Origin: Candidatus Enterousia intestinigallinarum
GTDB taxonomy: Bacteria > Pseudomonadota > Alphaproteobacteria > Rs-D84
Reading direction: 5' to 3'
Length of the DNA: 64,000 bases
Assembly (NCBI GenBank): GCA_018716885.1
Contig: DVJI01000009.1
Coordinates: 7,448-71,447, forward strand
Positions 26,204 through 49,835 of the stretch are shown here, piece after piece. The stretch's first letter is position 1; each line of letters opens with the position of its first letter. The translations under genes and the position numbers were made by a program. The notes under the pieces were generated by a model. That model worked only from the letters and a program-made list of their open reading frames with translations, ran no database searches and was not told where the DNA came from.

Positions 26204-26233
26204 TAAAATCCCGCAAAATGCGGGATTTTTTAT
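26204..26233. terminator. bidirectional intrinsic terminator after rpsK
   Basis: hairpin atcccgcaaaatgcgggat followed by a T-run. Confidence 0.65.
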
Positions 26234-26859
26234 TGTTTATAATAACAGTTTTGGGAAAATGTGTATGTGCCATAACCATCTGTTTGGTTATAATTATTGG
26301 GGATATAGCAGTCTGTGATTTTATTAAAACCTGCTTCGCTTGTTATCCCCGATGCGTTGTTCCCGTTGCGTGGGCACGGCAGGCAGCCATAACTTTGGGC
26401 AGAATAATATTCCCCTCGTTCACAGTGTTCTTCCCATCCGTGTTGACAAGCACCCCCGACATCGTCATCATAATAATATTCACTCCATTTATTTAAGTCA
26501 CTGCCACTAAGATAATTGGGCTGACTATAAAAGAATATTTCCCAATAGTTGTCAAATAGTAAATTTTTTGGTGCACATACGATTGTTAGGCGGACATTAT
26601 CCATACCAATGGAGCCTGTATTTAACCAGCAGCCTTTGGGGCCTTCATTAGCTTCTTGGGTGCTTTCACATTGTTGCGGTCCATTGTTTTTATATTCAAT
26701 TTCTTCAAATGAATCATAGCAGTATGTTTCCAGACAGTATGCGACAAAATCTGATGGACCAGAATTTTCAGTATAACAATATGTACCACAATTATCTTTT
26801 AATTCGCTAAAATCTTTTAATCGTGCGCTGGCTGGGAAAGTATATAATAATATTGGCAT
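26230..26859 (-). CDS. hypothetical Cys/Tyr/Asn-rich protein (209 aa), low GC, inserted in the alpha operon
   Basis: long ORF in a compositionally AT-rich segment; weakly hydrophobic N-terminus; no recognisable motif. Confidence 0.5.
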   Translation of the reverse strand: MPILLYTFPASARLKDFSELKDNCGTYCYTENSGPSDFVAYCLETYCYDSFEEIEYKNNGPQQCESTQEANEGPKGCWLNTGSIGMDNVRLTIVCAPKNLLFDNYWEIFFYSQPNYLSGSDLNKWSEYYYDDDVGGACQHGWEEHCERGEYYSAQSYGCLPCPRNGNNASGITSEAGFNKITDCYIPNNYNQTDGYGTYTFSQNCYYKQ

Positions 26860-27029
26860 AAAAAAACCGACGTTTGTTTTCGACAGAAACAGGAGTAAAA
26901 AATGTCAGTAAAAACAATAAAAACACAAATTATAAAAATTGGGAATATAATCGTCCGTTTGGATTCGGCGTGTTTTATGTAAAGTTATCCATATAATTTT
27001 ACCTGGATTTTATATTGTTTGCAATAGAA

Positions 27030-27058
27030 AAAACGCCCGATTGGGCGTTTGTTTTTTT
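27030..27058 (-). terminator. intrinsic terminator for the 27068-27490 gene
   Basis: hairpin aacgcccgattgggcgtt with a flanking T-run. Confidence 0.6.
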
Positions 27059-27067
27059 GTATCCCGT

Positions 27068-27490
27068 TTATCGGGCACACGTGCCAAACTGTGGATTCGG
27101 CGCGTCGATATAGCGGCGGGTTGTATATTCACCGGCCGGCTTGTACGTTACAACGGGCTGATATACTTGATAGTGGTCTATGACCTCGGTATACGTTTTT
27201 ACACGGACGGGCTGCATCTTTTTAGATGCCGGCGCGTTGCAACCACAGGGTTTGCGTGCAACGTCCAGTGATGATGCCACGCGGCAGGGGGCCGGTTTTT
27301 CCGCCCGAACCGCGGCGCGTGCGACGCGTGGTGCAACGTATGCGGCGTCAACGTATGTGACCGTGTCTATTTGTATCGTTTCATATGTATTCACGGTTTC
27401 CGTTTCTGTATACGCAAATCCATCGGCGGACGCATTGGCGCAAATCCCCAGAATACCCGCAAAAACACCAAAGAAAATTGCTTTTTTCAT
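27068..27490 (-). CDS. small secreted protein (140 aa), unknown function
   Basis: signal peptide MKKAIFFGVFAGILGICANASA; Thr/Tyr/Val-rich. Confidence 0.55.
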   Translation of the reverse strand: MKKAIFFGVFAGILGICANASADGFAYTETETVNTYETIQIDTVTYVDAAYVAPRVARAAVRAEKPAPCRVASSLDVARKPCGCNAPASKKMQPVRVKTYTEVIDHYQVYQPVVTYKPAGEYTTRRYIDAPNPQFGTCAR

Positions 27491-28876: not shown

Positions 28877-29422
28877 ATGAGACATATGAAAGCAGGTCGC
28901 ACATTTAATCGCGACACAAACGCACGCAAGGCCCTGTTTGTTGGTCTGGCGAAAAACTTGATTGAAAAAGAACAGATTAAAACTACTTTGCCCAAGGCCA
29001 AAGATTTGCGCGGCGTTGTTGAAAAATTGATTACCCGCGCCAAGGTGGATACGGTTGCAAATCGTCGTCTGGTTGCCAGTGAATTGGGCAATGGTTCGGA
29101 TGCAACGGTTAAAAAACTGTTCACTGTTTTGGGGCCGCGTTATGCCAAACGTCCTGGTGGATACACCCGCGTGTTAAAGGCCGGTTTCCGTTATGGTGAC
29201 GCTGCGCCGATGGCTATTATTGAATTGGTTGACCGTGATGTGAACGCGAAAAAGGTTGTAAAACCAGCCGCCACCACGGAAGACAAGGCGACAGAAAAGT
29301 CCGCGGACAAGGCACCGAAACAAGAAAAGACCACTAAAGCACCTGCGGCTAAGGCCGACAAGGATGCCGATGCGGCAAAAGAAAAAAAGCCGGCGACAAA
29401 ACGTCGCAGCGCGGCGAAATAA
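28877..29422 (+). CDS. rplQ: 50S ribosomal protein L17 with a Lys/Ala/Asp-rich C-terminal extension
   Basis: [22 protein letters not shown]17 core (about 120 aa) followed by an approximately 60-aa low-complexity tail. Confidence 0.92.
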
Positions 29423-29449
29423 AAAACGGGGCATTGCCCCGTTTTTTTT
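29421..29449 (+). terminator. intrinsic terminator ending the ribosomal superoperon
   Basis: hairpin acggggcattgccccgt followed by a T8 run. Confidence 0.7.
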
Positions 29450-29649
29450 ATGGAATAGATAACAGAGTTTATATATCGGTCTGCGACCATTTTGGCGCAG
29501 TATTTTTTTATTTGTTGCATTGCCACGTGGTGCGAAATTGCAAGCTTATAAATAGTAAAATCGACTTTGTGGTTGATTTAATCGTTGTGTATGATAACAT
29601 ACAAACGTCAGTGGGTGTTCCATTGACGGGGTGTAGTAGCCCTTTGTAA

Positions 29650-29805
29650 TTGTCAGAGATGACATAAAATATCGCCTCCACAATTTAGGTTGGAGGGTTG
29701 TGAATATCACGAATAAACAACACTATTATTACAATAGCTACTAACCTCCAACCACCTGAAATATTTTGGTGGTTTTTTCATTCGCAATGAAAAAGGAGGT
29801 TTAGA
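29650..29805 (+). promoter_or_regulatory. conserved structured 5' leader with an intrinsic terminator (candidate attenuator/riboswitch-like element), copy 1
   Basis: hairpin cctcca...ggttggagg (29685-29706), distal complement cctccaacc (29755-29763), then terminator aaccacc-N11-ggtggtt-tttt (29760-29788) about 20 nt before the RBS aaggagg; the same architecture precedes the paralog at 38675-38880 (minus strand). Confidence 0.45.
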
Positions 29806-30228
29806 ATGAAAAAACATTTAATCATCGCTGGCATAATTTGTGCGGCATCAATCCCACCAGCGTATGCAGTAACAAAATGCGTAAAACTAACGTCGTCAAC
29901 AACGTGTACAAGTTCCTCTGGCGCGACCGGTCAGTCAAATTGGTCTGCAACCTGTGGCGGTATAGAAATTCAGGGTGTTGCATTTTGTGGCTCTCAAGAT
30001 GGTTATTCATTTGGCGCAACATCCGAAACTGTCACGACCAGTTCAACCAGTGACGATAACAAATATTGTTGGTGCAAAATGGTTTCGCCTGCGGTGTCGC
30101 GCTGGGTTTTCTTCAACGCGCGCACGTCGGCCGGTATTTGCCTTAACTCTTGCGCGAACGGCTGTGCGTTCATCGCCCAGGTCGATGCGTCTTTCCGGTC
30201 GGTGCTGTTTAGTGGACTATCTGACTAA
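29806..30228 (+). CDS. small secreted Cys-rich protein A (140 aa)
   Basis: signal peptide MKKHLIIAGIICAASIPPAYA, 11 Cys, Ser/Thr-rich; about 90% nt-identical paralog at 38252-38674. Confidence 0.7.
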   Translation: MKKHLIIAGIICAASIPPAYAVTKCVKLTSSTTCTSSSGATGQSNWSATCGGIEIQGVAFCGSQDGYSFGATSETVTTSSTSDDNKYCWCKMVSPAVSRWVFFNARTSAGICLNSCANGCAFIAQVDASFRSVLFSGLSD

Positions 30229-30240
30229 ACGGGGGCGAAT

Positions 30241-30519
30241 ATGAAACGTATATTTATTTTTGTACTAGCGATTGTGCCGATTGGCGCATTTGCCGCCGCG
30301 CCGTCAACGTCGTGTCCCACGGGTTATGTTGCGGTTGTGGAATCGTATATGGAAATCGCGGACAGCACGTGTCCCGCTGGATATACATCCGCCGGTACGG
30401 CGGACAGTTGTCTGGCGTCGTCACCGGCCGGTTCGTGCATAATGTATGCGCCAACTGGTGTAACTTATACCGACGACAGCGGTTCATATGAATTTACATC
30501 TGCCTGTCCATTGGAATAA
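30241..30519 (+). CDS. small secreted Cys-rich protein B (92 aa)
   Basis: signal peptide MKRIFIFVLAIVPIGAFA; near-identical paralog at 37961-38239. Confidence 0.7.
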   Translation: MKRIFIFVLAIVPIGAFAAAPSTSCPTGYVAVVESYMEIADSTCPAGYTSAGTADSCLASSPAGSCIMYAPTGVTYTDDSGSYEFTSACPLE

Positions 30520-30520
30520 G

Positions 30521-30546
30521 CAAAACGCCCAAATGGGCGTTTTGTT
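30521..30546. terminator. bidirectional intrinsic terminator
   Basis: hairpin aacgcccaaatgggcgtt followed by a T-run. Confidence 0.6.
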
Positions 30547-31405
30547 ATCTGGTACGTTGTAATACCACAATCATTTCTGAATTGACATTTGTTTTGTCTT
30601 TGCGTATGCAGCCAATGCGAGCCCAGCGTTTGAATTTTTTTACAGCATCACGATATGCCGTAATTTTGTGCGCTATACCCCAGTTGCCGGTTTGGGCTAT
30701 TATCGTGCCACCTGGACGGACGTGGTTGCGCAACGACGCCAATGTCTGGTGTATTTGTTGCGGGGTCATATATTCAAATATATTTGACAGATTTATTGTA
30801 TCGTATTCACCGATCAGATGTGTGTGCAATGATTTTATATCCGACCATATGAATTTGAATGGTTCGTGTATTTTGTTACGCATTTGGGCATATTCGTCGT
30901 CTGTTGGTACAATATTCGCATAGTACGACGGGTTTAATCCGTTACTGAATATAGGATAAGCCGCCATTTGCTTTATAAAATATGCACTGTTTTGCGGAAT
31001 GTCATCAATCAATGTTCCGATTTGCTTTATATCCGATGCGCGATGTGCGGTATGCATATCGGACAACAGCTGTATATATTCCACACGGGATAATTTCTTT
31101 AACGCAGCGGTTTTAATGTCCATTGCCGCTTTGGCACAGAAAGACAGGTCGAATGTATCGATTTTTGTTGCGCCGCGCATAGCATAAAACATAGGATGAT
31201 CGCCAGACGCCGCAACGGTCAAAACGCGCGGCCCATCATTTTTTGTCAGTTCCGAAACCCAACGAATATCTTCGTTTGTCAGGACGTACGACGGGGAATA
31301 GTTTGAAAAGCCCAACATTTGATTATAAAATGTTGTGCCGTTCCCGCCGATAATGTATTCAGCGTGGGCATTGTCAATATTTAATCTTGGTGTTGCGTAT
31401 TTCAT
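30545..31405 (-). CDS. class I SAM-dependent methyltransferase-fold protein, DUF3419/BtaA-like
   Basis: 286 aa; RVLTVAASGDHPMFYA (SAM-binding-like GD motif) and the C-terminal GEYDTINLSNIFEYM...VRPGGTIIAQT resemble BtaA-family proteins; assigned from memory of family motifs only. Confidence 0.4.
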   Translation of the reverse strand: MKYATPRLNIDNAHAEYIIGGNGTTFYNQMLGFSNYSPSYVLTNEDIRWVSELTKNDGPRVLTVAASGDHPMFYAMRGATKIDTFDLSFCAKAAMDIKTAALKKLSRVEYIQLLSDMHTAHRASDIKQIGTLIDDIPQNSAYFIKQMAAYPIFSNGLNPSYYANIVPTDDEYAQMRNKIHEPFKFIWSDIKSLHTHLIGEYDTINLSNIFEYMTPQQIHQTLASLRNHVRPGGTIIAQTGNWGIAHKITAYRDAVKKFKRWARIGCIRKDKTNVNSEMIVVLQRTR

Positions 31406-31566
31406 TTCGCTCCCTCAGTTATTCTTTACTCAATATTATATAGTACAAAATAACCGATTGTCAATATCTGGCATTTTTTATGTTAAAAATATAATTGCGA
31501 CAGAAAAAATGCTTTCAATAAATTCATTAAATGTGATAAAATCTGATAAATAGGAAGGGCCTTTTT

Positions 31567-34557
31567 ATGAAAAAAATTGCAATTTTTTGTGCATTATTGA
31601 TGGGTTTTGTATATAACGCAGATGCGGCAACTGCACGTAATCCGCGGGGCAGCACGTCTGCAGCAACGGGTACGACGACTGCAACGCGTTCGTCTGGTGC
31701 GGCGACTGCGCGTAGTGCCACAACCGCACGCAGTGCGACCGCCACCCGCAGTGCGGCAACGCCCGCCACCACGGCACGCGCGGCGACGGCTGGTCGTACC
31801 ACTGTCAGCAGAACCCCCACCGCAACATCAACAACATCGGCCAGTACGGTCACACGCAGTGCAACCACGGCCCGTGCCGGTACAACACAAAAGGTCTTGA
31901 ATACTGGTACCAGTGTTGCCGCGGCAAATGAAAATGTTGTTGTCAGCGCGGAATGTCGCCAGAAATACTATGGTTGTATGGATTCTTTTTGTATGTTGGA
32001 TAACGACAGTGGTGGCCGCTGTATCTGCAGTGATAAAAATGCCGAATATGACGACATTTTGGCTCAAATAGAAGAATTGGATCAACAGTCGTATCAAATG
32101 GCGACGTACGGCGTTGAACGTATTGAAATGGGTGATGCGGCCGATGTTGCGATTGCAAACGCAAATGCGGTGGCACAGTCAATTATGGACGAAGCTGCCA
32201 AAGAGGAAGAAGATGATCGTCGCACGTTGGATTTGACGTCGTGGTTGTCGCCGGTTGATTTTTCTTCTGAAGACATTTTTGCCGATACCGGTATGATGGC
32301 CAGCCCGATTGAGGGCAAGGAAGGTGATGCACTGTACCAGGCATCGCATCAGATTTGTGCACAACAAATGCCAGAATGCAGCAATGAAATGAGTATGTTG
32401 CAACTGATGTATGCGCAACAAATTCGTTCTGACTGCAGCGCGTATGAAAACAGTTTGAAACAACAGAAAAATGCCAGTGCACAAAAACTGTATGCGGCGG
32501 AACAGGCACTGCGTGAAGCGGCACTGGAACAATACCAGACAGCTAATAAATATGACCTGGGGCAGTGTACCGTTGAGTTTAAGAATTGTATGATTTCAAC
32601 GGGTGGCTGTGGGGACGATTTTTCTGGCTGTGCGTCTGTTGCTGCGTTTGATTCAACAAATACACGTGGACGTGGCAGCGGTGCCGACACATATGAAATT
32701 CAGGGTAGTGCAACCAGCATAGAAATCCAAGCATCAACGTACGATATCTTGTTATCTAAAAAGCCCTTGTGCGAAGGCGTTACGAAGCAGTGTCAGTTGG
32801 TCGCTGACCAGGTCTGGGATACTTTCCTGCGTGAAGTCGCACCACAGGTCAAATCTGCAGAACTTATTGCTGAAAACAATGCAAGACAAAACTGCATCGG
32901 TAATATTTCTTCCTGTTTCCAGCAGGCCTGTCGTGATACTATTGACCCAAATGATCCGGACGGCTCTTATGATATGTGTCTGACCAGACCAGAAACTATG
33001 TTAAACCTGTGCCAGGTTCCTTTGAACGCCTGTGGGATTTCTACCGCGTCCGCAAGTGATGCAGAAGAATCTCCTATTTGGGAATTTGTCGTCGCGCGTT
33101 TGGCCTCTATGCGCGTCAATTCCTGCTCTACTCAGTTCAAAGAGTGTCTCCAATCTACAGACCGGTGTGGACCAGATTATACTCAATGTATCGGATTGGA
33201 TACGGATACCATTATGCGTATGTGCCCGTATGATACGCTGGTCGGATGTCAGCAACAGTATGGTGAAACTGAAATTATGGGCGAAGACGTTTATGATGAA
33301 TTGTATAATATCGCACAGGGTATTTTCCTGAATATCGATAATAATATGCTGACCGAATGCCAAAATGCCGCAAATGAAGCTATGATAAAGGTCTGTGGCG
33401 ATACAGAAACCTGTACTAATCTGACCACAGATGAAAATATCGGTGCTCGTTCGCTGGAATACAAGATTTGTGAATACACCAGCAGTGATAACAGTTTGGA
33501 TATTGATTATGCCAAATGTAGAACGGATGTTTCGCAAATTTTGGATACTGAATTGGGACGTGTTGAGGGCTCGACCAGCAGCGAATTAGGCCCAGTTACT
33601 CCGTTCGCCGGCGTTATTGACGGTACTATTTACTGGGAAAGCGTTGAAATTGACGAAGATGGTCGCCTGGCCAGTGTTGATGATTATCTGGAAAACATTG
33701 GTGAAACAAATATGAATGCAGCGACCAAGGATAAATTGTCGTCGGAATTGGCGGTATTACAGAAAAATATTGATACCGCAATCAATGCGATAGAGGCCGA
33801 CCCCAAGGTACAATTCTGTATGACTGGGCGCAATGTTGACGGTATTACAAACCGCAATGTCGTTGACCGCAGTTCCAGCACGACGGGACGCTTCCCGGAA
33901 CTGACTAAACAAATGCGTATGATAATTGCCAATGCCGCATTAAAAGTGGCTAAAGATAATTATTATAAAAAGTATGATGAATTAAATGAAAAAATGTTAC
34001 AGGATTACGCCACAATTGGTGAACGTATGGCGGAAATTCAGGGTGAAAATGCATTGGATGCCAGACGTGAAATTGCACGTATTGCGTGTGTGAATTTTGC
34101 AGAAATGGCCAGTTTGCCAAAATCGCCGGATCCACCGAAAAACGCATTTGGTAAAATCTTGTCTGCGGTGGCCTTGGTTGGTGCAGCAGTTGCAATACCG
34201 TTTACCGGTGGTTTGTCGGCGGTTGCAATTGCGGGCATCGGTGGTGCAGTAAGCGCCGGGGTAGGCGTGGCCGCTGCAGGTGCCGCGGTGGCCGGAATCG
34301 GATTGCTGGGCAATGTTGGTTCGGGCAGTGCAAATGGTGCGGATGCATCGGCACAGCGTGAACTGATTGGTTCCAAACAGTTGAATCAATGGAATTACAA
34401 AGAAACCATTACTTCAACGTTTGAATGGGATACGCTGATTTGCCACAAGTGCACGCGTACACAGCAGTGCAGCAAGACCAAGAACCCATTGTTTGGTAGC
34501 AAGTATTGCAAAACTTGGGCTGATCCGGTTGAAACCTGTACGGATACACAGTTCTAA
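31567..34557 (+). CDS. large secreted Cys-rich repeat protein (996 aa), lineage-specific family
   Basis: signal peptide MKKIAIFCALLMGFVYNADA; ATTARSAT-type low-complexity region; multiple Cys-rich modules including GGCGDDFSGCASVAAFDS and DRCGPDYTQC; C-terminal glycine-zipper hydrophobic stretch. Confidence 0.75.
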   Translation: MKKIAIFCALLMGFVYNADAATARNPRGSTSAATGTTTATRSSGAATARSATTARSATATRSAATPATTARAATAGRTTVSRTPTATSTTSASTVTRSATTARAGTTQKVLNTGTSVAAANENVVVSAECRQKYYGCMDSFCMLDNDSGGRCICSDKNAEYDDILAQIEELDQQSYQMATYGVERIEMGDAADVAIANANAVAQSIMDEAAKEEEDDRRTLDLTSWLSPVDFSSEDIFADTGMMASPIEGKEGDALYQASHQICAQQMPECSNEMSMLQLMYAQQIRSDCSAYENSLKQQKNASAQKLYAAEQALREAALEQYQTANKYDLGQCTVEFKNCMISTGGCGDDFSGCASVAAFDSTNTRGRGSGADTYEIQGSATSIEIQASTYDILLSKKPLCEGVTKQCQLVADQVWDTFLREVAPQVKSAELIAENNARQNCIGNISSCFQQACRDTIDPNDPDGSYDMCLTRPETMLNLCQVPLNACGISTASASDAEESPIWEFVVARLASMRVNSCSTQFKECLQSTDRCGPDYTQCIGLDTDTIMRMCPYDTLVGCQQQYGETEIMGEDVYDELYNIAQGIFLNIDNNMLTECQNAANEAMIKVCGDTETCTNLTTDENIGARSLEYKICEYTSSDNSLDIDYAKCRTDVSQILDTELGRVEGSTSSELGPVTPFAGVIDGTIYWESVEIDEDGRLASVDDYLENIGETNMNAATKDKLSSELAVLQKNIDTAINAIEADPKVQFCMTGRNVDGITNRNVVDRSSSTTGRFPELTKQMRMIIANAALKVAKDNYYKKYDELNEKMLQDYATIGERMAEIQGENALDARREIARIACVNFAEMASLPKSPDPPKNAFGKILSAVALVGAAVAIPFTGGLSAVAIAGIGGAVSAGVGVAAAGAAVAGIGLLGNVGSGSANGADASAQRELIGSKQLNQWNYKETITSTFEWDTLICHKCTRTQQCSKTKNPLFGSKYCKTWADPVETCTDTQF
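31650..31870. repeat. imperfect tandem low-complexity repeat (codons for A/T/R/S) inside the 996-aa gene
   Basis: reiterated gcgac/gccac...cgcagtgcg units coding for ATTARSAT-like repeats. Confidence 0.6.
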
Positions 34558-34586
34558 ACAAAAACGGGGCGTTCGCCCCGTTTTTG
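34558..34586 (+). terminator. intrinsic terminator
   Basis: hairpin aacggggcgttcgccccgtt followed by a T-run. Confidence 0.65.
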
Positions 34587-34634
34587 TTGTGTTGGTACAG
34601 AATTATAAAAATAAGATTATATCGCGAATAACAG

Positions 34635-35693
34635 TTAGTGCAGGTCGTTCAAATCGGTTATAACCGTTATACCATCGCGGGTCCATTGCGCGCGGCGTGC
34701 GTCCAGGTCAAGTATGTTCGTTTGTCCCAGGTACAATACTGGACGCACGCCGCGCGCCACGCCGGCCGCCAATACCGCGTCGGCGGGTGATGGCTTTTGT
34801 TTCCCAGATGCAAACCAGTTTGTATCGTCGGCTATCCAGAAATCGGGGTCATTATGCGCGGCAATCGCATCTTGTAATGTGAATATTATCCCGGATTCTA
34901 TTGTGTGTTCGATGCCTTTGGCAGACAAGTATTCCGCAACCGGTCTTAAATCGTCCGTTACATCGCCGGGTAATTGTGTTGGGGCGGGGGCCGGCTTGTT
35001 TTCTATTGGCGCTTGTGCGTCAGTATCAGCGTCGGTGGTGCCGGTGTCATTGTCAAAGTTCACATCGGAAAATACCGGCGCAAATGTTGGGGTACCCATA
35101 TCAAACGGATTGTCTTCGGCAACATCAAAATCTGTGGGCAAGGGCAGTTCAGTTGCGGGCTGTAGTTCCGGTTGCGGGGATGGTGTGGCTGGGTGGGATG
35201 ATGTAATATTGCTGATATCAAAGTTTGATTTTGGGGCGTGGCCACTGTGCGCGCGTGCACGAATAAATGCCGCACGCAGTTCCGTTGGAATTTCTTTTGG
35301 TGCGGGTGTTGGGGTGGTATCGACAATCGGCGCCGTGTCCGCGTTTTTGGGGGCTGTGTCCTGGGTCGGTTTGATTGTATCGTCTGGGACGGGCTGCATA
35401 AATTGTGGTAATGGTATTGTGAACAACGGCTTTTTAGTGCGTAAAATGATACTTGTTGTGGCAATGTACATCGGTATAGCCGCCAAAATCAGTATCCCGA
35501 AAACAAAACCCGGAAAACCACGCAGTTGTGCGTGCATCAAAATATGCCACTGTGCGCCGGAAAATATGTCAAAGTTGAACAGCCATTTCAAAACAGCCCA
35601 TATAATCACGCCATAACAAATCGTCCATATCAGCGCATATTTATTTTTTTGCAAAAATTCCAGGACTTTTTTCATCTTTATTATTATAGACAA
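34635..35693 (-). CDS. inner-membrane protein with a Pro/Thr-rich linker (352 aa)
   Basis: two N-terminal TM helices, PTPAP-type linker, acidic C-terminal domain; no recognisable motif. Confidence 0.55.
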   Translation of the reverse strand: MSIIIKMKKVLEFLQKNKYALIWTICYGVIIWAVLKWLFNFDIFSGAQWHILMHAQLRGFPGFVFGILILAAIPMYIATTSIILRTKKPLFTIPLPQFMQPVPDDTIKPTQDTAPKNADTAPIVDTTPTPAPKEIPTELRAAFIRARAHSGHAPKSNFDISNITSSHPATPSPQPELQPATELPLPTDFDVAEDNPFDMGTPTFAPVFSDVNFDNDTGTTDADTDAQAPIENKPAPAPTQLPGDVTDDLRPVAEYLSAKGIEHTIESGIIFTLQDAIAAHNDPDFWIADDTNWFASGKQKPSPADAVLAAGVARGVRPVLYLGQTNILDLDARRAQWTRDGITVITDLNDLH

Positions 35694-35809
35694 TTTTATT
35701 TATTTGTCAATAAACTTGTTGGGTTTGTGTTTATTTTATGTCTAAAAAGTGCTTTTTTTAGTGTTGCTTTAATGGTATAATTAAACAGATATATCAAGGG
35801 GGAGTTTTT

Positions 35810-37909
35810 ATGCAATCTTTGCTGAAGTTATTTGGTACATCTGTGGCGGGACTGGGAATCTTTGTCTTTGTTGGCAATGCGTATGCCGTTACCGCGCGCA
35901 ATACTGCGGGAAATGTTGCCCAATGGAACAGTCGGGCCGGCGTAACCACTTCTGTGTCGTCACAGCGTATGCCGACTATGCCGACATTGCCGAATTTTAC
36001 GGTTGGAAATGTGTCACCAGATTTGCCGAATAATACAACCCCCAGTAACCCAGGTGACCCGGATAATCCTGATAATCCTGATAATCCCGACCCGGAACCA
36101 GAGCCGGAATGTCCGGACGGTGGGGTCAAGGATTCTGAATACACAGTTGACAGCTGTATGAACGACGTGCTGATGTGTATAAACACCGGGGCGTTGCCGG
36201 GTGGATTGAACGATTTGTTTAATGAAGATTTGCGCAATTCCATTGTGAACGGTATGAATCTGTGTGCCACCCAGGTTGAATACTGTATCGCAAATGTTCG
36301 TAAAAACTGTTCGTATGTTTATCGGTCGGCCGCAGATGTGTGGATTGACTTTAATGCGCGCAAGGTTCAGCCCGCTTACTATAACTTTGTTTTACGCAAG
36401 ACGGGATTGACGCCGAACCAGGCGGAAAATACGTGTCTGTTGCTGGACGTGAATACATATGGTTCTTCGTTTAATGCGGTTGCTAATTCGGGCAGCGTTA
36501 CATCAGAATATAACATCGGTGTCGGTGCTTATAACAGCCAGAACGGAAATATGCTGATTAAAAATAATCCCCAGGGGGCTGAATTGAACTATGGCAATCC
36601 CGGGGTTGATGGTCAGCGTGGTCATTATGCGCGTTGGGATCCAACGACGGCGGAATGCTGGCTGCGTGTTGCGGCGTATAATAAGGATACCCAAATTAAA
36701 AACAGTTGGTTGTTTGGTGCCGCCGGAAACGACCAGCCGGCCGAAGTATGGCGCCAGGCGGGTGAAACATTTACGTGCAACCGTGATTTGTTTGGCTTTT
36801 CATTGATGAACCAGACAAATACTGCGGCGGTTGTTGGTGTCGGTGGCGGCGCGGTTGTTGGTGCCGGGGTTGGTGCGATTGCTGGACACGGCGCACGTGC
36901 CTTTGACTGCAGCAGGGCCAGCCATCGTGAAATGCTGACCGAAGAATTGCGGGCAGACGCCAGTTTTGGTTCAATCAGTGAATATCTGGAAGACCCGATT
37001 TTGGCAACGGTTGATGAAATAACACGCGACCAATGTGAACAGATTGTGTTGCTGTATGACAAGTTTGTTCAGGTAAAAGAAGCACTGAAAAAATGCAATA
37101 CGATTGAAGTCACATCGTCTGAAACAACGATTTATTCCGATGTTGCAGTACAATGTAACAATTATATAAATATTGAAGATTGCTTTTCTAATGTTGCTAT
37201 GCTGAATCCTTGCAAAGGACAGGGATTTACCACGGCACAACAGTGCGCGAACTTCTTAGCCCAGCAAAATGCGGATGCGGCCGCTGCGTTGGTGGACAAT
37301 GATCCGGCTGCGTCGGAAAATGAGTTCTGTTCGTTCCAACCGTTGAATCTGGCGCGCGCCAGTGGTACCGGCATATACTGTAACGCCGGCGGGGCGGGAT
37401 GTCAAAATGCGGTTCAAATATCGGTGGATGTAGAACGTCTGGACGATATATTCACATCTGAAATCAAGGATCTGTTACAAAATGGCGAAGAATCCAATAT
37501 GGGCAAGTCAATCGGTATTGGCATTGGTGTCGGCGCAGGTGCCGGTGGGTTGGCAACGGCGATTACCGCGTTCGTTGAACGCAGTAACATCAGTTGTCAC
37601 GTTGGTGACGGACTGGCGCAGGTCGGATATGGCAAATCATATTCGATTGGGTCGCTGAAAGATTTCTATGTCAAATGGAACCTGAATCTGCCAGACACAA
37701 TTACCCCAACGGGAACGGCGGTGGATTGTGATTCTTGGAAACGTGCGTGCGGTACAATTACTAACCTGGAACAGTGTGCGTCGGCTCAGTTAAATTATAA
37801 ACCGGCCGATGCGGCGACAACAACGTTGGTACCGACGGCGTGCACAGTATCGGGCAGCGTGTGCATAGAAAATTATCCGGTTGCCAAATCGTACGGTGCG
37901 TGTGAATAA
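35810..37909 (+). CDS. large secreted Cys-rich protein (699 aa), same family
   Basis: signal peptide ...FVFVGNAYA followed by VTARN (compare ATARN in the 996-aa protein); PDNPDNPDNPDPEPEPE repeat; 24 Cys; glycine-zipper segments AVVGVGGGAVVGAGVGAIAG and IGIGIGVGAGAGG. Confidence 0.75.
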   Translation: MQSLLKLFGTSVAGLGIFVFVGNAYAVTARNTAGNVAQWNSRAGVTTSVSSQRMPTMPTLPNFTVGNVSPDLPNNTTPSNPGDPDNPDNPDNPDPEPEPECPDGGVKDSEYTVDSCMNDVLMCINTGALPGGLNDLFNEDLRNSIVNGMNLCATQVEYCIANVRKNCSYVYRSAADVWIDFNARKVQPAYYNFVLRKTGLTPNQAENTCLLLDVNTYGSSFNAVANSGSVTSEYNIGVGAYNSQNGNMLIKNNPQGAELNYGNPGVDGQRGHYARWDPTTAECWLRVAAYNKDTQIKNSWLFGAAGNDQPAEVWRQAGETFTCNRDLFGFSLMNQTNTAAVVGVGGGAVVGAGVGAIAGHGARAFDCSRASHREMLTEELRADASFGSISEYLEDPILATVDEITRDQCEQIVLLYDKFVQVKEALKKCNTIEVTSSETTIYSDVAVQCNNYINIEDCFSNVAMLNPCKGQGFTTAQQCANFLAQQNADAAAALVDNDPAASENEFCSFQPLNLARASGTGIYCNAGGAGCQNAVQISVDVERLDDIFTSEIKDLLQNGEESNMGKSIGIGIGVGAGAGGLATAITAFVERSNISCHVGDGLAQVGYGKSYSIGSLKDFYVKWNLNLPDTITPTGTAVDCDSWKRACGTITNLEQCASAQLNYKPADAATTTLVPTACTVSGSVCIENYPVAKSYGACE
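36061..36087. repeat. 9-bp tandem repeat x3 (ggataatcc[t/c]) encoding DNPDNPDNP
   Basis: direct observation; in-frame. Confidence 0.8.
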
Positions 37910-37926
37910 GTTTTACCCAAGGTGTC

Positions 37927-37955
37927 AAAACCGCCCGCAAGGGCGGTTTTTTATT
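37927..37955. terminator. bidirectional intrinsic terminator
   Basis: hairpin aaccgccc-gcaa-gggcggtt followed by a T-run. Confidence 0.65.
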
Positions 37956-37960
37956 TTATA

Positions 37961-38239
37961 TTATTCCAATGGACAGGCAGATGTAAATTCATATGAACCG
38001 CTGCTGTCGGTATAAGTTACACCTGTTGGCGCATACATAATACACGACCCGGTCGGTGACGACGCCAGACAACTGTCCGCCGTACCAGCAGATGTATATC
38101 CACTGGGACACGTGCTGTCCGCTATTTCCATATATTCTTCCACCACGGTAACATATCCAGCGGGACACGACGTGGACGGTGCGGCGGCAAATGCGCCAAT
38201 CGGCGCAATCGCTAGTACAAAAATAAATATACGTTTCAT
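37961..38239 (-). CDS. small secreted Cys-rich protein B' (92 aa)
   Basis: differs from the 30241-30519 product at only a few residues. Confidence 0.7.
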   Translation of the reverse strand: MKRIFIFVLAIAPIGAFAAAPSTSCPAGYVTVVEEYMEIADSTCPSGYTSAGTADSCLASSPTGSCIMYAPTGVTYTDSSGSYEFTSACPLE

Positions 38240-38251
38240 ATTCGCCCCCGT

Positions 38252-38674
38252 TTAGTCAGATAGTCCACTAAACAGCCCCGACCGGAATTTGGAGCTGCGC
38301 TGAGCGTGGAGCGCACAGTTGTTCGCGCAATTGTACGCGCAATAGCCGGCGGTCATCTCTTCGAAGTAGAACACCCACGACGAAACCGCTGGTGAAACCA
38401 TTTTGCACCAGCAATAATAGTTATCGTCACTGGTTGTACTGGTCGTGACATTTTCGGATTTGGTGCCAGCTGAACCACCATCTTGAGAGCCACAAAATGC
38501 AACGCCCTGAATTTCTATACCGCCACAGGTTGCTGACCAATTTGACTGACCGACCGCGCCAGAGAAACTTGTACACGTTGTTGATGAAGTTAGTTTTACG
38601 CATTTTGTCACCGCATACACTGGTGGGATTGATGCCGCACAAATTATGCCGGCGATGATTAAATGTTTTTTCAT
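38252..38674 (-). CDS. small secreted Cys-rich protein A' (140 aa)
   Basis: MKKHLIIAGIICAASIPPVYA...; ATG at 38674 with RBS aagggaga; the track's longer ORF (to 38716) adds an upstream in-frame MKKGDKN. Confidence 0.7.
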   Translation of the reverse strand: MKKHLIIAGIICAASIPPVYAVTKCVKLTSSTTCTSFSGAVGQSNWSATCGGIEIQGVAFCGSQDGGSAGTKSENVTTSTTSDDNYYCWCKMVSPAVSSWVFYFEEMTAGYCAYNCANNCALHAQRSSKFRSGLFSGLSD

Positions 38675-38880
38675 ATTCTTATCTCCCTTTTTCATTTTTT
38701 GATATGAAAAAACCACCAGAAATCTTCAGGTGGTTGGAGTTTAAGAACAATCAGTAGTAATTGCGTGGTTTATTCAATATATTCACCACACTCCAACCAA
38801 AATACGGTTGGATTTATTTTACGTCTTGCCGACGCTACTGACGGGTTCTTAAGCCCATCGGCGGAATACCCACCGACATT
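38675..38880 (-). promoter_or_regulatory. conserved structured 5' leader with terminator, copy 2
   Basis: the reverse complement carries ...tccaacc-gtatttt-ggttgga...ctccaacc then aaccacc-tgaagatttct-ggtggtt-tttt; the compensatory change in the first hairpin relative to copy 1 preserves pairing. Confidence 0.45.
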
Positions 38881-39009
38881 GTTTATAATATCGTGTTAGT
38901 TATTTTAATGCAAGGGATAATAGTTTTTTATTGTCGGACGTTTATAAGTTTGTTCTGTTTTTTTGGGGGGCTGTCGGTAAAGAAACATCCCGCCAGTTGG
39001 CGGGATGTT

Positions 39010-41679
39010 TTATGATGCGCATTTATTATTAGAAAACTGTACTTCTACCTTGCGGCAATTTTTATCATACTTGCTGGTGCTGTTACATTGGGTCGAACCA
39101 ACACCGCTGGCCGTTATGTTTGACGCGGACAGCCCACCAGATACCAGTGCATTTTTTACCGCATTTGCACGTCGTTCGGATAGTGGCTGATTTATTGCAT
39201 CGGTACCGCTTTTATCTGTGTGACCGGTAACGGTAATACAATAATCTGTATTGTTGCCAACCTGGGCTTTAACGTCTGTGACAAATGTGTTCAGAACATT
39301 TTGTGCATCGGATGTTAAATTTGACGAGTTCAATTCAAACAGGTTGCCTGTATTCAATGTAATTGTTGGAATTTCGACAACTGGTTGAACAATTTCGGTT
39401 ACAGCAGGAATTATCTGCTTTGTAACGCATTGACCCTGGGCATTGATTTCGTGTGTTGCGGTCGGACAGTGGCATTTTGGTGTTGCGTCACTGCTTAAAG
39501 TATATCCGTCGGTACATTCGCAATCGCCGGTGTTTGGGTCAACGGTGACGTGTCCGGCGGAAGTATCACATTTTGCCGTTACGGTTGGTGCTGTGGGGGT
39601 AACACACGTATTGTTTTCACCGGGTAATGTTCCGTCTGGACAGCCACAGGTGTTATTCACAGAAACCATATCGCCGGGACAGGATTCGCACATATTTGTA
39701 TTTGCGTTATGTATGTATTTTGTATTTGTACATACGCAGTTTGGATATGTTCCAGTTGCGTCAGACGGACATTTAGCCGTAGATTCAGCGTCCGGCAATT
39801 TTGCGGTATTGTCGCGTAATTTCTTTAATGGTTCATATTTTGCCAGAATTTCGTCAGAACTTTCGCGTGGTTTATCACCGACATAGTTAGTCAACACATC
39901 GCCCACAATTCCAACAACCGCACCCGCGCCGGCAACAATAGCACCTGTTTTTAATTGTGATGATGTATCGGACTTCTGCGCCGCCCATTCTGCCGCATCC
40001 GCGCCGGTCGGATCAGACAACGCACGTGACAATGACGTATATGCTCCGTCGGTTATACCAGTCGCCGCATTGTCGTACAAACCAGACGTCGCCGCATCCA
40101 GAATAACTTCGGATTCTATACCTGGGGTCATACCAAGGGCCTCTTTACGCGTTTTCAAATCTGCTGCTAATGTCGTATATTCGTTATATATCGGCAATAA
40201 TACATTTGCGCCGGGCAGTTGTATGTTTGTTTCGCCACCGCTGATTGTCATACCCTGGCCATAGTCGCATTTGAACGTTGCAAGATACGCCGCCATATCA
40301 CGTTCGGCGTCCGCATCGGCATTTTGTTCGGCCAGTGCGGATGCTACCTGCATCCCGCCAATACCCATTGCGCCGATACCCGCACCACCAATCAGACGAT
40401 TTGCCAACGATTGTTCACGTTCTTTCATTGCGTCGGCGTTTTCCTGTAATTCCGCGATTTGCTTTTGGGCATCTTCCTGTGACAGGGTTGGTTCGATACA
40501 GGATTTTTTATCATTGCTGATGCTGTAGCCGTCGCGACAGGCGTCTATAATACATACCTCGACACCGGCGGTGGAATCGTATTCACGATGTGCAGATGTC
40601 GCATTTTCCGGCATCGGACTGCAGTTGCCAGATATAGCAATACATTTGCCGCCCGATACCTCATATCCGGCATCGCATTCAGTTGCGTGACAGACGCCAC
40701 GCTTTAGTTCGCCGGCCGTTGCGTGTTCGATTTGTTGAACTTGGGCGTCGGTACAGGGACCTTCGCTGACATCACAGGCGGTGCCGGCATCGTTTGGTAA
40801 ATATCCCTTGTTACACTTTTTAATTTCGCATTTTAGTGTATTGTTTTCCCAAACATATTCGGATTTTGATGCATTTGCATCGGTTGCGGTGCAGTCCTTG
40901 CCAACCTGATCTTCACATTTATCGCCGGCAGCATTTAATACATAGCGTGGCGATTCACAGTTTAATGCATCACAAGTATTTGCTTTTTTGTTTAATGTGT
41001 AACCATATGCGCAATCGTCCGGAACACAGTATATACCATTGCCGTCGGCATTGCGGGCGGTGTGACCAGATGTGGCATTTATTGCGGCTAATTCTTCGCC
41101 CGTACAGTCACGTGATTTCCATTGTTCCTCAACAACAATTTCATCCAGTAATTCGGCATCTTCGGTCAGGGTTATATTCATATTTTGACCGGGTGTCAGG
41201 GTTTGGTCTTTGAACCCGATGTATGATATTTGAACATCACGGTCACTGGGGAAATTATCAAGTGTAAAATTCCCATCCATATCAGATGTTGTACCAATAC
41301 CCGTGGACGCACCAGATGGAACAATAGTCGCGCCAATTAAAGGTTCACCGTTTTCATCAACAATACGACCAGATATTGTCATTGTTGCAGCTGCGGAATT
41401 TAATTCTGACGAATTTTCATTTAATGTTTTTTCGCAGTAATTGCGTATCATTTCGGCACGTTGTTCGGCAGTTACGCTTGATTTGAATCCGCCGGCACAG
41501 GAAATTGAGTTATCAATATTTACGTTGCCGCCACTTGTAACACGATTGCAGTTTATTGACGAACCGCTGGCTATATTGCATATTTGACTAAAAAAATCAA
41601 TCTCCGCGTCAATATCGATTGCGCCGAATGCGGGCAGGGCGAATAATACTGCAAAAAATCCGAACAAATATTTTCTCAT
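39010..41679 (-). CDS. multidomain secreted protein with a C-terminal OmpA-like peptidoglycan-binding domain (889 aa)
   Basis: signal peptide MRKYLFGFFAVLFALPAFGA; CarbopepD_reg-like segment ISGRIVDENGEPLIGATIV...; Cys-rich EGF-like repeats; glycine zippers; C-terminal VTGHTDKSGTDAINQPLSERRANAV OmpA/MotB signature; ATG at 41679 with RBS aggaag. Confidence 0.8.
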   Translation of the reverse strand: MRKYLFGFFAVLFALPAFGAIDIDAEIDFFSQICNIASGSSINCNRVTSGGNVNIDNSISCAGGFKSSVTAEQRAEMIRNYCEKTLNENSSELNSAAATMTISGRIVDENGEPLIGATIVPSGASTGIGTTSDMDGNFTLDNFPSDRDVQISYIGFKDQTLTPGQNMNITLTEDAELLDEIVVEEQWKSRDCTGEELAAINATSGHTARNADGNGIYCVPDDCAYGYTLNKKANTCDALNCESPRYVLNAAGDKCEDQVGKDCTATDANASKSEYVWENNTLKCEIKKCNKGYLPNDAGTACDVSEGPCTDAQVQQIEHATAGELKRGVCHATECDAGYEVSGGKCIAISGNCSPMPENATSAHREYDSTAGVEVCIIDACRDGYSISNDKKSCIEPTLSQEDAQKQIAELQENADAMKEREQSLANRLIGGAGIGAMGIGGMQVASALAEQNADADAERDMAAYLATFKCDYGQGMTISGGETNIQLPGANVLLPIYNEYTTLAADLKTRKEALGMTPGIESEVILDAATSGLYDNAATGITDGAYTSLSRALSDPTGADAAEWAAQKSDTSSQLKTGAIVAGAGAVVGIVGDVLTNYVGDKPRESSDEILAKYEPLKKLRDNTAKLPDAESTAKCPSDATGTYPNCVCTNTKYIHNANTNMCESCPGDMVSVNNTCGCPDGTLPGENNTCVTPTAPTVTAKCDTSAGHVTVDPNTGDCECTDGYTLSSDATPKCHCPTATHEINAQGQCVTKQIIPAVTEIVQPVVEIPTITLNTGNLFELNSSNLTSDAQNVLNTFVTDVKAQVGNNTDYCITVTGHTDKSGTDAINQPLSERRANAVKNALVSGGLSASNITASGVGSTQCNSTSKYDKNCRKVEVQFSNNKCAS

Positions 41680-41700
41680 ACTTCCTGTTGCCCCCAAACT

Positions 41701-45960: not shown

Positions 45961-46088
45961 CATAATATAATATATAAAGTATATTGCTGACCCGGACAGA
46001 TGTACTGTCCGGGCTATTTTTATGGAAAGTTTTTTCTAGACATAGAATTTGATTGTATGTTATGATGTTTTTACAGAGAGAATTTTCA

Positions 46089-49000: not shown

Positions 49001-49835
49001 TGCAGCCGGATATCAGCGGCACTTTACCGATGGGGCGTCGCGCTTTGATGGTATGTCCAATCCGATTTTGGGACTGACGTCAAATGCGATGACAACAGAT
49101 ATTGCGTATAATATGGGACGCTGGACATTTGGGGCACGTGCGTTTTCGGGGGCAATTACTGATGAAACTATGCTGGACAGTGATCCGACATTGGCGTCAC
49201 AATATTTGCCTGCGCGTCTGGGGCTGATGCAGGGTGCACAATCAGACATCTCGTGGCAGGGTGAACGTTTCGGATTTACCACGTCAGTTGGTGCCGCACA
49301 CGAAAATAATACGTTACTGGGGGCGGTATCAGGTGGATTGTTGGATATGGGTAACGGCGACACTATATATGTTGATTCGGAATTTCGGTACAGCCCGGCG
49401 GAAGACGTTACGCTGACTATGCGGTCGACATTTGCACGTACCACCGCCGACGCCACAGGACAATTTATCCTGGGGATGAGTGATATAGATTCCAATGCGT
49501 TTGCATTTGGTGTTGATGCCGGCAATTTCAGTTTCAGCGTATCGCAACCGTTGACGGTCAGCCGTGGGTATATGCAATTCCCATATGCCGAATACGAATT
49601 GGTTGATTTGGGTGACGGAAAATATGATTTAGATATAACTGATATGCATATTGAAAATGTCAATTTAAGTCCTGATAAGCGCGAAGTACGATTTGCGGGT
49701 GCATATCGTCATAACTTTGGGGAATTTACAGACGGGGCAATAGGGTTTATATATCGTGTGAATCCGAATAATACCGATGAGTTTGGAAACGAGTCCATAT
49801 TTATGATGAAAATGACACATCGACTTGGCATTTAA
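46089..49835 (+). CDS. giant surface protein: signal peptide, ankyrin-like repeat, TM/Gly-rich linker, large passenger region, autotransporter-like C-terminal beta domain (1248 aa)
   Basis: MKYIRLLLFALFLIPAGAVAA; ankyrin-like LLISNGANVNYVDSTGLSLVCTALMNNDVRAAQILQMYGADA; C-terminal 300 aa with alternating hydrophobic beta-strand pattern; a weak subtilase-like stretch GPTAEMATASAAGAVAAL is inconclusive. Confidence 0.6.
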   Translation: MKYIRLLLFALFLIPAGAVAATTANNSEFMVAAQLLAAAKNADIQQVQLLISNGANVNYVDSTGLSLVCTALMNNDVRAAQILQMYGADASQCDRQIKQYNSRTQTESSGGLFSGLSSAQTISLAAAGAAVVVGGLFLLTDWLDPGNENGGGSSSGNRPNGGGDDDNGGGSATAGAEIPVGPAYFTSDGEIAYSTAAYESNLAQWDPSAGGVREADFNYFRPTTQPENNYVVDGILLPLQNYLLIMHGYSSFANGYMGQTTFRDNNHNPIRVLNSTGGGRPVLASLITANGINAAGSAARSVDGIAWSDSTAVNSNTDRFDKYANYNKPSNGNLGTEISGFDLSGSGTAMNPFASATESALAKIVGGWEAGGRAYGDLYGFVPNGQLAIYRTGGGGKWVDVEDPTSGELIGTLTDSGATTKVGTIEPGDVITLANGVKYTISNALDDAGVTNPTIEINGKTYKLGAGSILLKGTCTSDTPSECENVSDIAIYQGTDGYYYVNSTGGDTVDAVYVINDNNIYVQKEWKESDVRNFEAIYNARTNGSAVIANVALNPESRKVSYTNIGEIESYFALGGSTDKKTLFAALINNYYEKDSSDSTTQGGYANSIFNGYNSSLPILVMPAGEFAWGQGDGKTMNVLDATFENYAPALYDSNLEHMFMTVVAVQHSKGTSDADSIGDYGNGINDDFGPLYLSMWTDNNGTPDDTSDDTRYMSRKCGIAGLGLNGVDPWCFSAAGPTAEMATASAAGAVAALKGAFPYMTNGDIFTLMALTADGPYLGTDNAGNAFTVDSLVSYLKTMYSLPPDYHASELTGQDYLDAFAEVYGYGMINLERAMTPGNKIYYYDGNSIVSGNGNAYWRAASNTVFRASSAFSPSTAKISAPFFDILESVDGKMTLPRVWKNEFALGVTDKRGLYMGDVLGEFKTRNDAPQRVQFGNFGFSMTTSEKPYADNLNGLDNMRLDYTSGNWNFAAGYQRHFTDGASRFDGMSNPILGLTSNAMTTDIAYNMGRWTFGARAFSGAITDETMLDSDPTLASQYLPARLGLMQGAQSDISWQGERFGFTTSVGAAHENNTLLGAVSGGLLDMGNGDTIYVDSEFRYSPAEDVTLTMRSTFARTTADATGQFILGMSDIDSNAFAFGVDAGNFSFSVSQPLTVSRGYMQFPYAEYELVDLGDGKYDLDITDMHIENVNLSPDKREVRFAGAYRHNFGEFTDGAIGFIYRVNPNNTDEFGNESIFMMKMTHRLGI

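Follow-up and report, generated by a model that had tools for sequence, protein, structure and literature searches.

In the msp2/p44 system of Anaplasma, the pilE/pilS system of Neisseria, and the vlsE system of Borrelia, all carried by host-dependent bacteria, some of which have reduced genomes, one expression site is accompanied by promoterless donor copies, and the alleles are mosaics in which a hypervariable core lies between conserved recombination blocks. The bab paralogues of Helicobacter pylori are genes for exported proteins that occupy fixed loci and have conserved ends and a variable middle; intragenomic recombination makes variants of them, and the same allele of babA, babB, or babC can be found at different loci (A, B, and C) in different strains (PMC4552749, PMC3444412). 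Here we analyze a repeated two-gene cassette in a 64,000-nucleotide (nt) stretch of DNA, referred to below as the window, from Candidatus Enterousia intestinigallinarum (GenBank assembly GCA_018716885.1, contig DVJI01000009.1, positions 7,448 to 71,447 of the forward strand). Enterousia belongs to the uncultured alphaproteobacterial order Rs-D84, has genomes below ~1 Mb, is widespread in guts, and was inferred in a published genome analysis to be an obligate symbiont or parasite of animal guts (PMC12306168). Each cassette consists of a leader RNA followed by genes A and B, which encode small Cys-rich proteins with signal peptides, and two cassettes in the window form a pair of inverted repeats. 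We favor, with a probability of about 0.68, the reading that these are recombining, variable secreted-protein cassettes with a switch leader, two of which were inserted independently in the window. The inverted duplicate as such is correct but ordinary; the cassette family, the leader RNA, and the inter-locus allele exchange beneath it are more interesting.

In its population pattern the bab system is the closest match, as the allele here called A2 is found at the right site of the window, at the left site in a related strain (L034), and at a flavodoxin-flanked site (L040 and L041; L-numbers are labels of related contigs or loci compared with the window). Each Bab protein, however, is a large outer-membrane adhesin with a beta-barrel, the product of a single gene, and has no sequence relationship to A-B, whereas the unit described here is a two-gene, 140- plus 92-amino-acid (aa) Cys-rich pair with at least nine copies in one genome, each behind a structured terminator/antiterminator leader. 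The cassettes share with msp2/p44, pil, and vlsE a multi-copy organization, a hypervariable core flanked by conserved blocks, and mosaic alleles, but every intact A-B copy comes with a leader, a ribosome-binding site, and a signal peptide of its own, and the system is known here from assemblies. The chlamydial proteins OmcA and OmcB are a small and a larger Cys-rich exported envelope protein, single-copy and not hypervariable. A-B resembles them as a Cys-rich exported pair of a small and a larger protein in a host-dependent bacterium, and among the other window genes is one for an autotransporter with Chlamydia PMP repeats; unlike OmcA/OmcB, A-B is multi-copy and hypervariable, and no sequence or fold similarity to those proteins could be detected. 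The evidence presented below is computational and comes partly from metagenome contigs, and cassette count and positions in this genome refer to the window only.

Dispersed leader-A-B cassettes and allele sharing between loci

The A-B gene pair, one 140-aa and one 92-aa open reading frame (ORF), lies at 29806-30519 on the forward strand and again at 37961-38674 on the reverse strand. The two copies are convergent (A-B ... B'-A') around four genes, namely a DUF3419/methyltransferase-like gene (MT) and genes for a 996-aa protein (P996), a 352-aa membrane protein (M352), and a 699-aa protein (P699), and the inner ends of the two arms are 7,441 nt apart. The cassette features are as follows.

29646..30519, forward strand: left cassette (left arm) with promoter region, leader, A1, and B1; extent taken from conservation across 19 cassettes and the arm alignment
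29806..30228, forward strand: A1, 140 aa, Sec signal peptide with cleavage after AYA, nine Cys in the mature part
30241..30519, forward strand: B1, 92 aa, signal peptide, five Cys in the mature part, two CPxGY motifs
37961..38239, reverse strand: B2, 92 aa, 92% aa identity to B1
38252..38674, reverse strand: A2, 140 aa, 79% aa identity to A1; its 423-nt sequence also stands at the left site of L034

An initial annotation of this DNA had described facing, homologous two-gene units of small, Cys-rich proteins with Sec signals, a description that the arm alignment bears out. The arms remain similar for ~160 nt upstream of the A start, up to ~29646 in the left arm and ~38840 in the right, and each is ~0.87 to 0.9 kb long, in agreement with the ~0.9 kb estimated at first. 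A repeat finder resolved the arms into three inverted pairs: 29806-30180/38300-38674 (375 nt, 85%), 30193-30519/37961-38287 (327 nt, 92%), and 29742-29781/38704-38743 (40 nt, 88%). The similarity originally put at ~90% nucleotide identity is real, with a slightly lower figure of 87% over the gene pair; A1 and A2 differ at 67 of 423 nt and 29 of 140 aa, and B1 and B2 at 24 of 279 nt and 7 of 92 aa. The 12-nt A/B spacer, rightly counted as part of the repeat from the outset, does not differ between the arms and is part of their longest exact match, which covers 71 nt (30204-30274). A listed 154-aa ORF at 38252-38716 is an upstream extension, and homology together with the ribosome-binding site places the A2 start at the ATG at 38674. 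Contigs from at least six different samples, which are independent metagenome assemblies of Candidatus Enterousia intestinigallinarum, reproduce the locus at 99.9 to 100% identity; the inverted-arm structure is therefore genuine, neither due to chance nor to misassembly.

Both arms belong to a dispersed, multi-copy leader-A-B family and do not represent an isolated duplication. When one genome per GTDB species was scanned, 27 loci came up, every one of them in Enterousia-like metagenome-assembled genomes (MAGs), with A followed by B at nearly all of them and often with several cassettes per locus; the BRZ_KL_bin36 MAG carries at least nine cassettes in a genome of roughly 1 Mb. Among 19 cassettes from many loci, mean pairwise identity was 0.57 to 0.83 inside the unit vs 0.08 to 0.25 outside it. 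Every intact cassette has a leader, a Shine-Dalgarno (SD) sequence, and a signal peptide, and a few copies are pseudogenes with deleted leaders. An exhaustive HMMER search (E <= 1e-3) put the family at 646 clusters at 50% identity. A 784-aa family protein has four tandem A domains, and A domains also occur in giant proteins that are 4,750 and 6,218 aa long, the former of which additionally has an endonuclease I domain and Listeria-Bacteroides repeats. Natural fusions in the order B-A are seen as well, one of them in a 30-member cluster found on many contigs. Further conserved cassette sites lie beside LemA, beside CarD, and beside flavodoxin/DsbA, and relatives of A1 at 83% identity occupy the non-orthologous CarD locus. 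The retention of nine or more copies in so small a genome, each behind the same RNA, suggests that the unit is central to the organism's way of life.

The A-B cassette family is previously undescribed. A and B had no match in Pfam, NCBIfam, PADLOC, PHROGs, or PDB sequences, and the cassette DNA, A, and B had no relatives on phage or plasmid records; a phage, plasmid, or defense origin of the cassettes was rejected on these grounds. An EGF-like identity of B was also dismissed, with Pfam cEGF scoring 14.3 to 15.5 bits, below the cutoff of 26.6. A third candidate, that A is the target of a diversity-generating retroelement, was discarded because no reverse transcriptase was present in the window ORFs scanned and there was no template repeat; the window likewise held no third copy of the A variable region.

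Opposed cassettes were seen at two other loci. In L054 (3088-10265) they bracket flavodoxin, DsbA, RecO, L9, S18, S6, and an OmpA-family gene, and in L014 (7082-10707) head-to-head cassettes lie around DsbA-RecO; the gene order around these opposed pairs varies between species. Cassettes may mark rearrangement breakpoints, and repeated cassettes account for assembly breaks at these sites in such genomes.

Identical alleles were found at different loci. The L034 strain, ~1% diverged from the window in flanking genes, has a left-type leader at its left site, and the A gene behind this leader matches A2 at 423 of 423 nt; 68 consecutive informative sites, from 29829 to 30275, are right-type, after which comes a distinct B allele that is left-type from 30456. 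Two independent SPAdes contigs from the same study as the window contig (L040 and L041) carry the A2 allele behind a flavodoxin/DsbA flank and the leader of that locus and are right-type at 66 to 76 consecutive informative sites. L002 has left-type sequence in the outer portion of its right leader, and two megahit contigs join a LemA flank (L002) and a flavodoxin flank (L054) to A1-B1-MT-P996. The ends of the exchange tracts fall in blocks conserved across all cassettes, one comprising the leader 3' end and the signal-peptide codons and the other the A 3' end, the spacer, and the B 5' end. As in known gene-conversion families, then, paralogues with conserved flanks surround a hypervariable core, copies are mosaic, and the same allele stands at different loci; a single expression site with silent donors was not found. 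We propose that the copies exchange sequence by segmental gene conversion and that the conserved blocks serve as homology arms, whereby whole A cores could move between loci and strains. The cassettes thus provide a natural case of allele shuffling among paralogous loci that is visible in public metagenomes.

Exchange appears to reach across species boundaries as well. Between the window and its sister species L012, synonymous sites of rpoA are saturated (synonymous divergence [dS] of 2.8) at ~84% nucleotide identity, whereas the interval ~29150-31600, which spans the rplQ 3' end, the leader, and MT, is 96 to 100% identical, with a dS of 0.05 in MT; this near-identical tract is broken by an island of 72 to 93% identity exactly over A-B. 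Such a tract, despite the divergence of rpoA, points to recent inter-species recombination over ~29150-31600.

The distribution of the cassettes among relatives also differs between the two sites. The sister species L012 (rpoA 98% aa identity) has the order rplQ-A-B-MT-P996-M352-P699 followed directly by OmpA895, with one leader and no right cassette, and L057, L058, and L065 (rpoA 94% aa identity) have rplQ-MT-P996-M352-P699-OmpA895-P613, with neither cassette and no leader. These absences argue that both arms are later additions to a conserved envelope-gene block and that the right one is species-specific. At the right site the intergenic DNA could not be aligned with that of L012, and no target-site duplication, terminal repeat, or insertion scar was seen there. 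In the window, two cassettes would have been inserted independently and in opposite orientation on either side of the conserved block, their coding parts would have been partly homogenized, and the inverted geometry would be incidental.

A structured leader RNA common to the cassettes

A leader of ~145 nt precedes A in the cassettes and is 70 to 77% identical at the nucleotide level where the A proteins are only 35 to 45% identical. Its elements in the two arms, read from an alignment of 26 leaders and with the terminator judged from alignments, are as follows.

29664..29808, forward strand: left leader RNA, type I; covariance-model match 148 bits
29665-29670, forward strand: -10-like TAAAAT
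29675-29681, forward strand: seg1, CCUCCAC
29688-29696, forward strand: seg2, GGUUGGAGG
29697-29721, forward strand: P2 hairpin, loop GAAUAUCACGAAUAA
29723-29737, forward strand: P3 hairpin
29745-29753, forward strand: seg3, CCUCCAACC
29750-29756 and 29768-29774, forward strand: terminator, AACCACC/GGUGGUU, with U-run to 29778
29795-29799, forward strand: SD, GGAGG
38674..38825, reverse strand: right leader RNA, type II; covariance-model match 140 bits
38821-38816, reverse strand: -10-like TAAAAT
38812-38806, reverse strand: seg1, UCCAACC
38798-38791, reverse strand: seg2, GGUUGGAG
38739-38732, reverse strand: seg3, CUCCAACC
38735-38729 and 38717-38711, reverse strand: terminator, followed by a U-run

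One motif is present three times in the leader, as seg1 (CUCCAAC), as its complement seg2 (GGUUGGAGG), and as seg3 (CCUCCAACC). Between seg2 and seg3 lie the P2 and P3 hairpins, with an almost invariant P2 loop (GAAUAUnnnGAAUAA), and an intrinsic terminator (AACCACC ... GGUGGUU plus U-run) follows, the 5' half of which overlaps seg3 by 4 nt. In the RNAalifold consensus, seg2:seg3 closes P2 and P3. This fold is strongly supported by covariation: 99.4% of cells are paired, and 11 of the 19 pairs have compensatory changes. None of 500 shuffles reached the observed paired percentage, the double-change cell count, or the covariation score, a single one reached the number of pairs with double changes, and slid-register controls gave 29 to 56% paired. 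The competing seg1:seg2 helix covaries too, and the three segments vary as a set, in four versions (CUCCAAC, CUCCUGA, UCCAACC, and CCCGAC). G-U pairs occur on the sense strand only, indicating that the structure is one of RNA rather than DNA. The minimum free energy fold of the full right leader consists of seg1:seg2, P2, and the terminator (-32.1 kcal/mol, z = -3.9), and without seg1 the leader core folds as a three-way junction (z = -4 to -5). Many folds also show seg3 paired to the ribosome-binding site; the SD is inherently complementary to CCUCC.

Each cassette would form a transcription unit complete in itself, with a -10-like TAAAAT and the leader ahead of A and B. These features suggest a putative transcription-attenuation switch common to a regulon. 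In a terminator state, a seg1:seg2 hairpin at the 5' end would form together with the intrinsic terminator, and transcription should stop; in an antiterminator state, seg2:seg3 would close the three-way junction and consume the 5' half of the terminator, and read-through would be expected. A trigger, presumably, would tip the leader from one state to the other. Mutually exclusive terminators and antiterminators are known from purine ON-switches, T-box leaders, and ANTAR-type leaders. As in such riboswitch and attenuator leaders, the helix that closes the junction overlaps the terminator 5' half, covariation is strong, a loop is invariant, and the element is regulon-wide; unlike them, the leader has an additional 5' segment, seg1, that duplicates seg3 and competes with it for seg2. 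The 5' untranslated structure backed by compensatory changes and the exclusive terminator and antiterminator are thus those of an attenuation leader, whereas membership in a curated RNA family is lacking: no Rfam family matched at the gathering score or even at E <= 10, and the leader belongs to no described RNA family.

With the covariance model we found 43 leader copies in 29 sources; within the window it detected only two, those of the arms. Copies outside A-B cassettes lie ahead of genes for other secreted Cys-rich proteins and of three small HTH_3 (XRE-type) genes, at L007:18208-18347(-), L014:17360-17507(+), and L018:9502-9647(-). The HTH_3 gene in L018 is divergent from an A-B cassette ~200 nt away. 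These leader-preceded HTH_3 genes are candidate regulators of the cassette regulon.

In two sources (L016:16252-16324(+) and L020:15311-15381(+)) the leader is deleted between seg1 and seg3, with seg1 fused to the terminator, and the shortened leaders precede truncated A genes of 84 and 46 codons; such deletions may have arisen by recombination between the direct repeats seg1 and seg3. We also noted a 14-codon, GTG-started ORF at 29697-29741 of the forward strand, which spans P2 and P3 and ends with a TAA just before seg3, and which has an equivalent in the right leader. A leader peptide was rejected since the GTG start is lost through compensatory stem changes (GTCACG in L017, L027b, and L016); the ORF is probably fortuitous, with RNA structure rather than coding being conserved.

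The presumably exported protein pair and competing explanations

Both mature proteins have odd Cys counts, with nine Cys in 26 of 34 family members of A and five in 27 of 28 of B. An AlphaFold2 model of A from a diverse alignment (pLDDT 91, pTM 0.80) has a five-stranded sheet packed on two C-terminal helices. Among 115 close homologues, sequence entropy of A is 1.62 bits at residues 96-131, vs about 0.3 to 0.6 elsewhere, and this region, where C112, C116, and C120 are fixed, covers the last part of strand 5 together with a loop and the first helix; residues 36-42 and 66-75 form smaller variable patches. The ratio of nonsynonymous to synonymous divergence (omega) in the variable third is 0.87 between A1 and A2 and 1.23 between the window and L012, compared with 0.14 to 0.46 in the rest of A and 0.2 in B. 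A has a conserved Cys scaffold that bears hypervariable patches, mainly at residues 102-130. The odd numbers of Cys in both proteins, the strict adjacency of their genes, and the recurrent B-A fusions suggest that A and B are probably joined as a disulfide-linked heterodimer; both would be exported and oxidized in the periplasm, where they would probably pair. Signal peptides on both proteins and the tandem occurrence of the A domain in giant proteins with Listeria-Bacteroides repeats hint at an extracellular role, and our proposal is that a partner-dependent bacterium exports A-B as a variable ligand or surface component, possibly displayed on the cell envelope or secreted. The domain with its confidently predicted fold, its partner protein, and the leader RNA with its textbook covariation are three objects absent from current databases.

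The initial annotation regarded the arms as a single inverted duplication followed by local diversification. In this account, which we judge unlikely, a recent in situ duplication would have diverged through point mutations and diversifying selection, above all in the C-terminal third of A, and its attractions are coding parts that are 84 to 91% identical, the identical 12-nt spacer, the absence of the right copy in L012, and an omega of up to 0.87 in A codons 96-140, obtained from a pairwise alignment by segment in which the similarity of the arms proved to be more than short patches. A simple duplication would be expected to show roughly uniform divergence from end to end, two copies that along their entire length have no closer relative than each other, and an outgroup site without the extra copy, and of these three properties only the last (in L012) is present. 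From the leader (66% between the arms), identity rises to 91% in A codons 1-95, drops to 70% in codons 96-140, climbs to 97% at the A/B junction, and stands at 91% in B, such that the early observation of divergence concentrated in the C-terminal third of A was accurate; the heterogeneity along the arms is highly significant by chi-square test (p = 3e-10), and an exact run as long as 71 nt would have p < 1e-4 if divergence were uniform. Only 65% identity is shared by the right leader and the left one, vs 82%, 80%, and 78% by the right leader and those in L018, L027, and L014, which precede A proteins only 42 to 47% identical to A1, and the right arm thus joins an old, distinct leader subtype to a coding part close to that of the left arm. 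In A1 the nearest relatives by segment are L008, L012, and L007. The interpretation of the C-terminal divergence as diversification after duplication also fails, as dS between A1 and A2 rises from 0.15 to 0.20 in the first two thirds to 0.45 in the last, an increase of 2 to 3 times that favors imported sequence over post-duplication selection alone, and as this third is hypervariable across the family and A alleles are shared between loci. The multi-copy nature of the family, the A1 relatives at the CarD locus, and the unchanged A2 sequence at other loci argue in the same direction. The arms were also suggested to mediate inversion, and a switch in which recombination between the 0.9-kb repeats flips the 7.4-kb segment, altering envelope-gene expression or making A/B chimeras, would find suitable geometry, exact runs of up to 71 nt between the arms, and evident non-reciprocal exchange between them. 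Invertible segments bounded by inverted repeats are known from Hin/Gin, the fim switch, and shufflons, and large inversions occur between rRNA or insertion sequence copies. The window resembles Hin/Gin, fim, and shufflons in having inverted homologous arms that bracket a multi-gene segment, but we found no invertase, no alternative orientation, and no orientation-dependent promoter or gene fragment here. Recombination within the arms would keep the inner junctions and link rplQ to the P699 side, whereas contigs from rplQ to MT (at least five samples) and several contigs from OmpA895 to P699 all have the window orientation, although consensus assemblies could miss a rare inversion isomer. Pfam scans of the interior genes and of 30 other window ORFs detected no recombinase domain, each arm and interior gene has its own expression signals such that a flip would change little, and the arrangement is missing in relatives. 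Of the three hallmarks of an invertible segment, flanking inverted repeats, both orientations, and a nearby recombinase, only the repeats are thus in evidence, and we consider such a switch very improbable.

For the function of A-B, the main rival to a surface ligand is a secreted two-component toxin or bacteriocin-like pair directed against competitors or the partner cell, with diversification as an arms race. Small, secreted, disulfide-rich, hypervariable proteins in many copies do occur in some toxin families, and A-B, being two-component as well, fits that description; the cassettes have no signal-peptide-less cognate immunity gene beside them, however, A and B gave no PADLOC, PHROG, Pfam toxin, or PDB matches, and the A domain also occurs in giant repeat proteins typical of surface adhesins, leading us to regard a toxin role as distinctly unlikely. 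Several points weigh against our preferred reading of recombining, variable secreted-protein cassettes. The contigs that carry A2 at the flavodoxin-flanked site (L040 and L041) are short and of low coverage, and L002 and L054 are singletons among 24 contigs and come from one megahit project, in which chimeras via identical repeats are possible. The covariation controls leave some phylogenetic signal, and the arms were aligned with general tools. Foldseek found nothing similar to the A model in PDB (best E of 0.8, TM of 0.33) or BFVD, and in a model of a natural B-A fusion the B half has a pLDDT of ~50 and is unusable for B or for the A-B interface. All copies look expressible, and what we interpret as a variation system may be ordinary paralogue recombination combined with diversifying selection. 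A more elaborate version of the recombining-cassette reading, which we offer tentatively and at less than even odds, is a modular variation system of obligately partner-dependent gut Alphaproteobacteria, in which many expressible cassettes with homology arms built in would allow hypervariable A cores to be swapped among loci and strains, a new riboswitch-like three-way-junction leader would co-regulate all of them and also control XRE-type regulators, and a new-fold, disulfide-linked A-B heterodimer would have the adaptive purpose of attaching to or recognizing the host or partner cell.

Neighboring genes and other features of the window

The left arm region comes directly after a ribosomal-protein/rpoA/rplQ cluster. 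The features between the two cassettes are as follows.

30523..30543: GC-rich hairpin between the convergent B1 and methyltransferase-like genes, likely a bidirectional terminator
30545..31405, reverse strand: MT, DUF3419/SAM-methyltransferase-like, 286 aa; Pfam DUF3419, 53.8 bits
31567..34557, forward strand: P996, 996-aa secreted Cys-rich protein with a Gly/Ala-rich hydrophobic region, without known family
34635..35693, reverse strand: M352, 352-aa membrane protein (346 aa in public gene calls), without known family
35810..37909, forward strand: P699, 699-aa secreted Cys-rich protein, without known family; homologues mapped in relatives
37927..37950: GC-rich, terminator-like hairpin between the convergent P699 and B2 genes

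Between the window and L012, the envelope-gene block at 31567-41697 has evolved much faster than its neighbors, with aa identities of 80% for P996, 54% for M352, 78% for P699, and 65% for OmpA895, vs 98% for rpoA and 99% for MT. In L057, the intergenic region between P699 and OmpA895 (12245-12900) has no cassette and contains short, inverted, ORF-like repeats that encode 'SFRGLTPESRS' on both strands. Interrupting the ribosomal cluster, which is conserved in other respects, two secreted, family-less proteins (209 aa and 140 aa) are encoded on the opposite strand between rpsK and rpoA (26230-27490, reverse strand), and the 140-aa protein is 66% identical in L012, whose rpoA is 98% identical. 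The gene for S4 (rpsD) is not at its usual place in the window cluster; in L002 it adjoins LemA.

Other genes in the window encode large or host-associated proteins. A 1,154-aa autotransporter (56992-60456, reverse strand) combines Chlamydia PMP repeats with a C-terminal autotransporter beta-domain and represents a second kind of surface protein, of a type typical for host-associated bacteria. A 1,260-aa protein (46053-49835, forward strand) has ankyrin Ank_4 (24.7 bits) as its sole Pfam match, and its gene contains a weak tblastn match to B1 (47802-47912, E of 0.045). Beyond a tRNA gene at 60891-60961, the G+C content falls to 32 to 40%, and the segment 60891-64000, which carries an AAA_21 (AbiEii-like) ATPase gene at 62556-63791 and two family-less ORFs, may be an island integrated at the tRNA. 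Two tandem choloylglycine-hydrolase genes of the bile-salt-hydrolase family (54700-55794 and 55800-56897, reverse strand) are present in this bacterium with a genome of <1 Mb.

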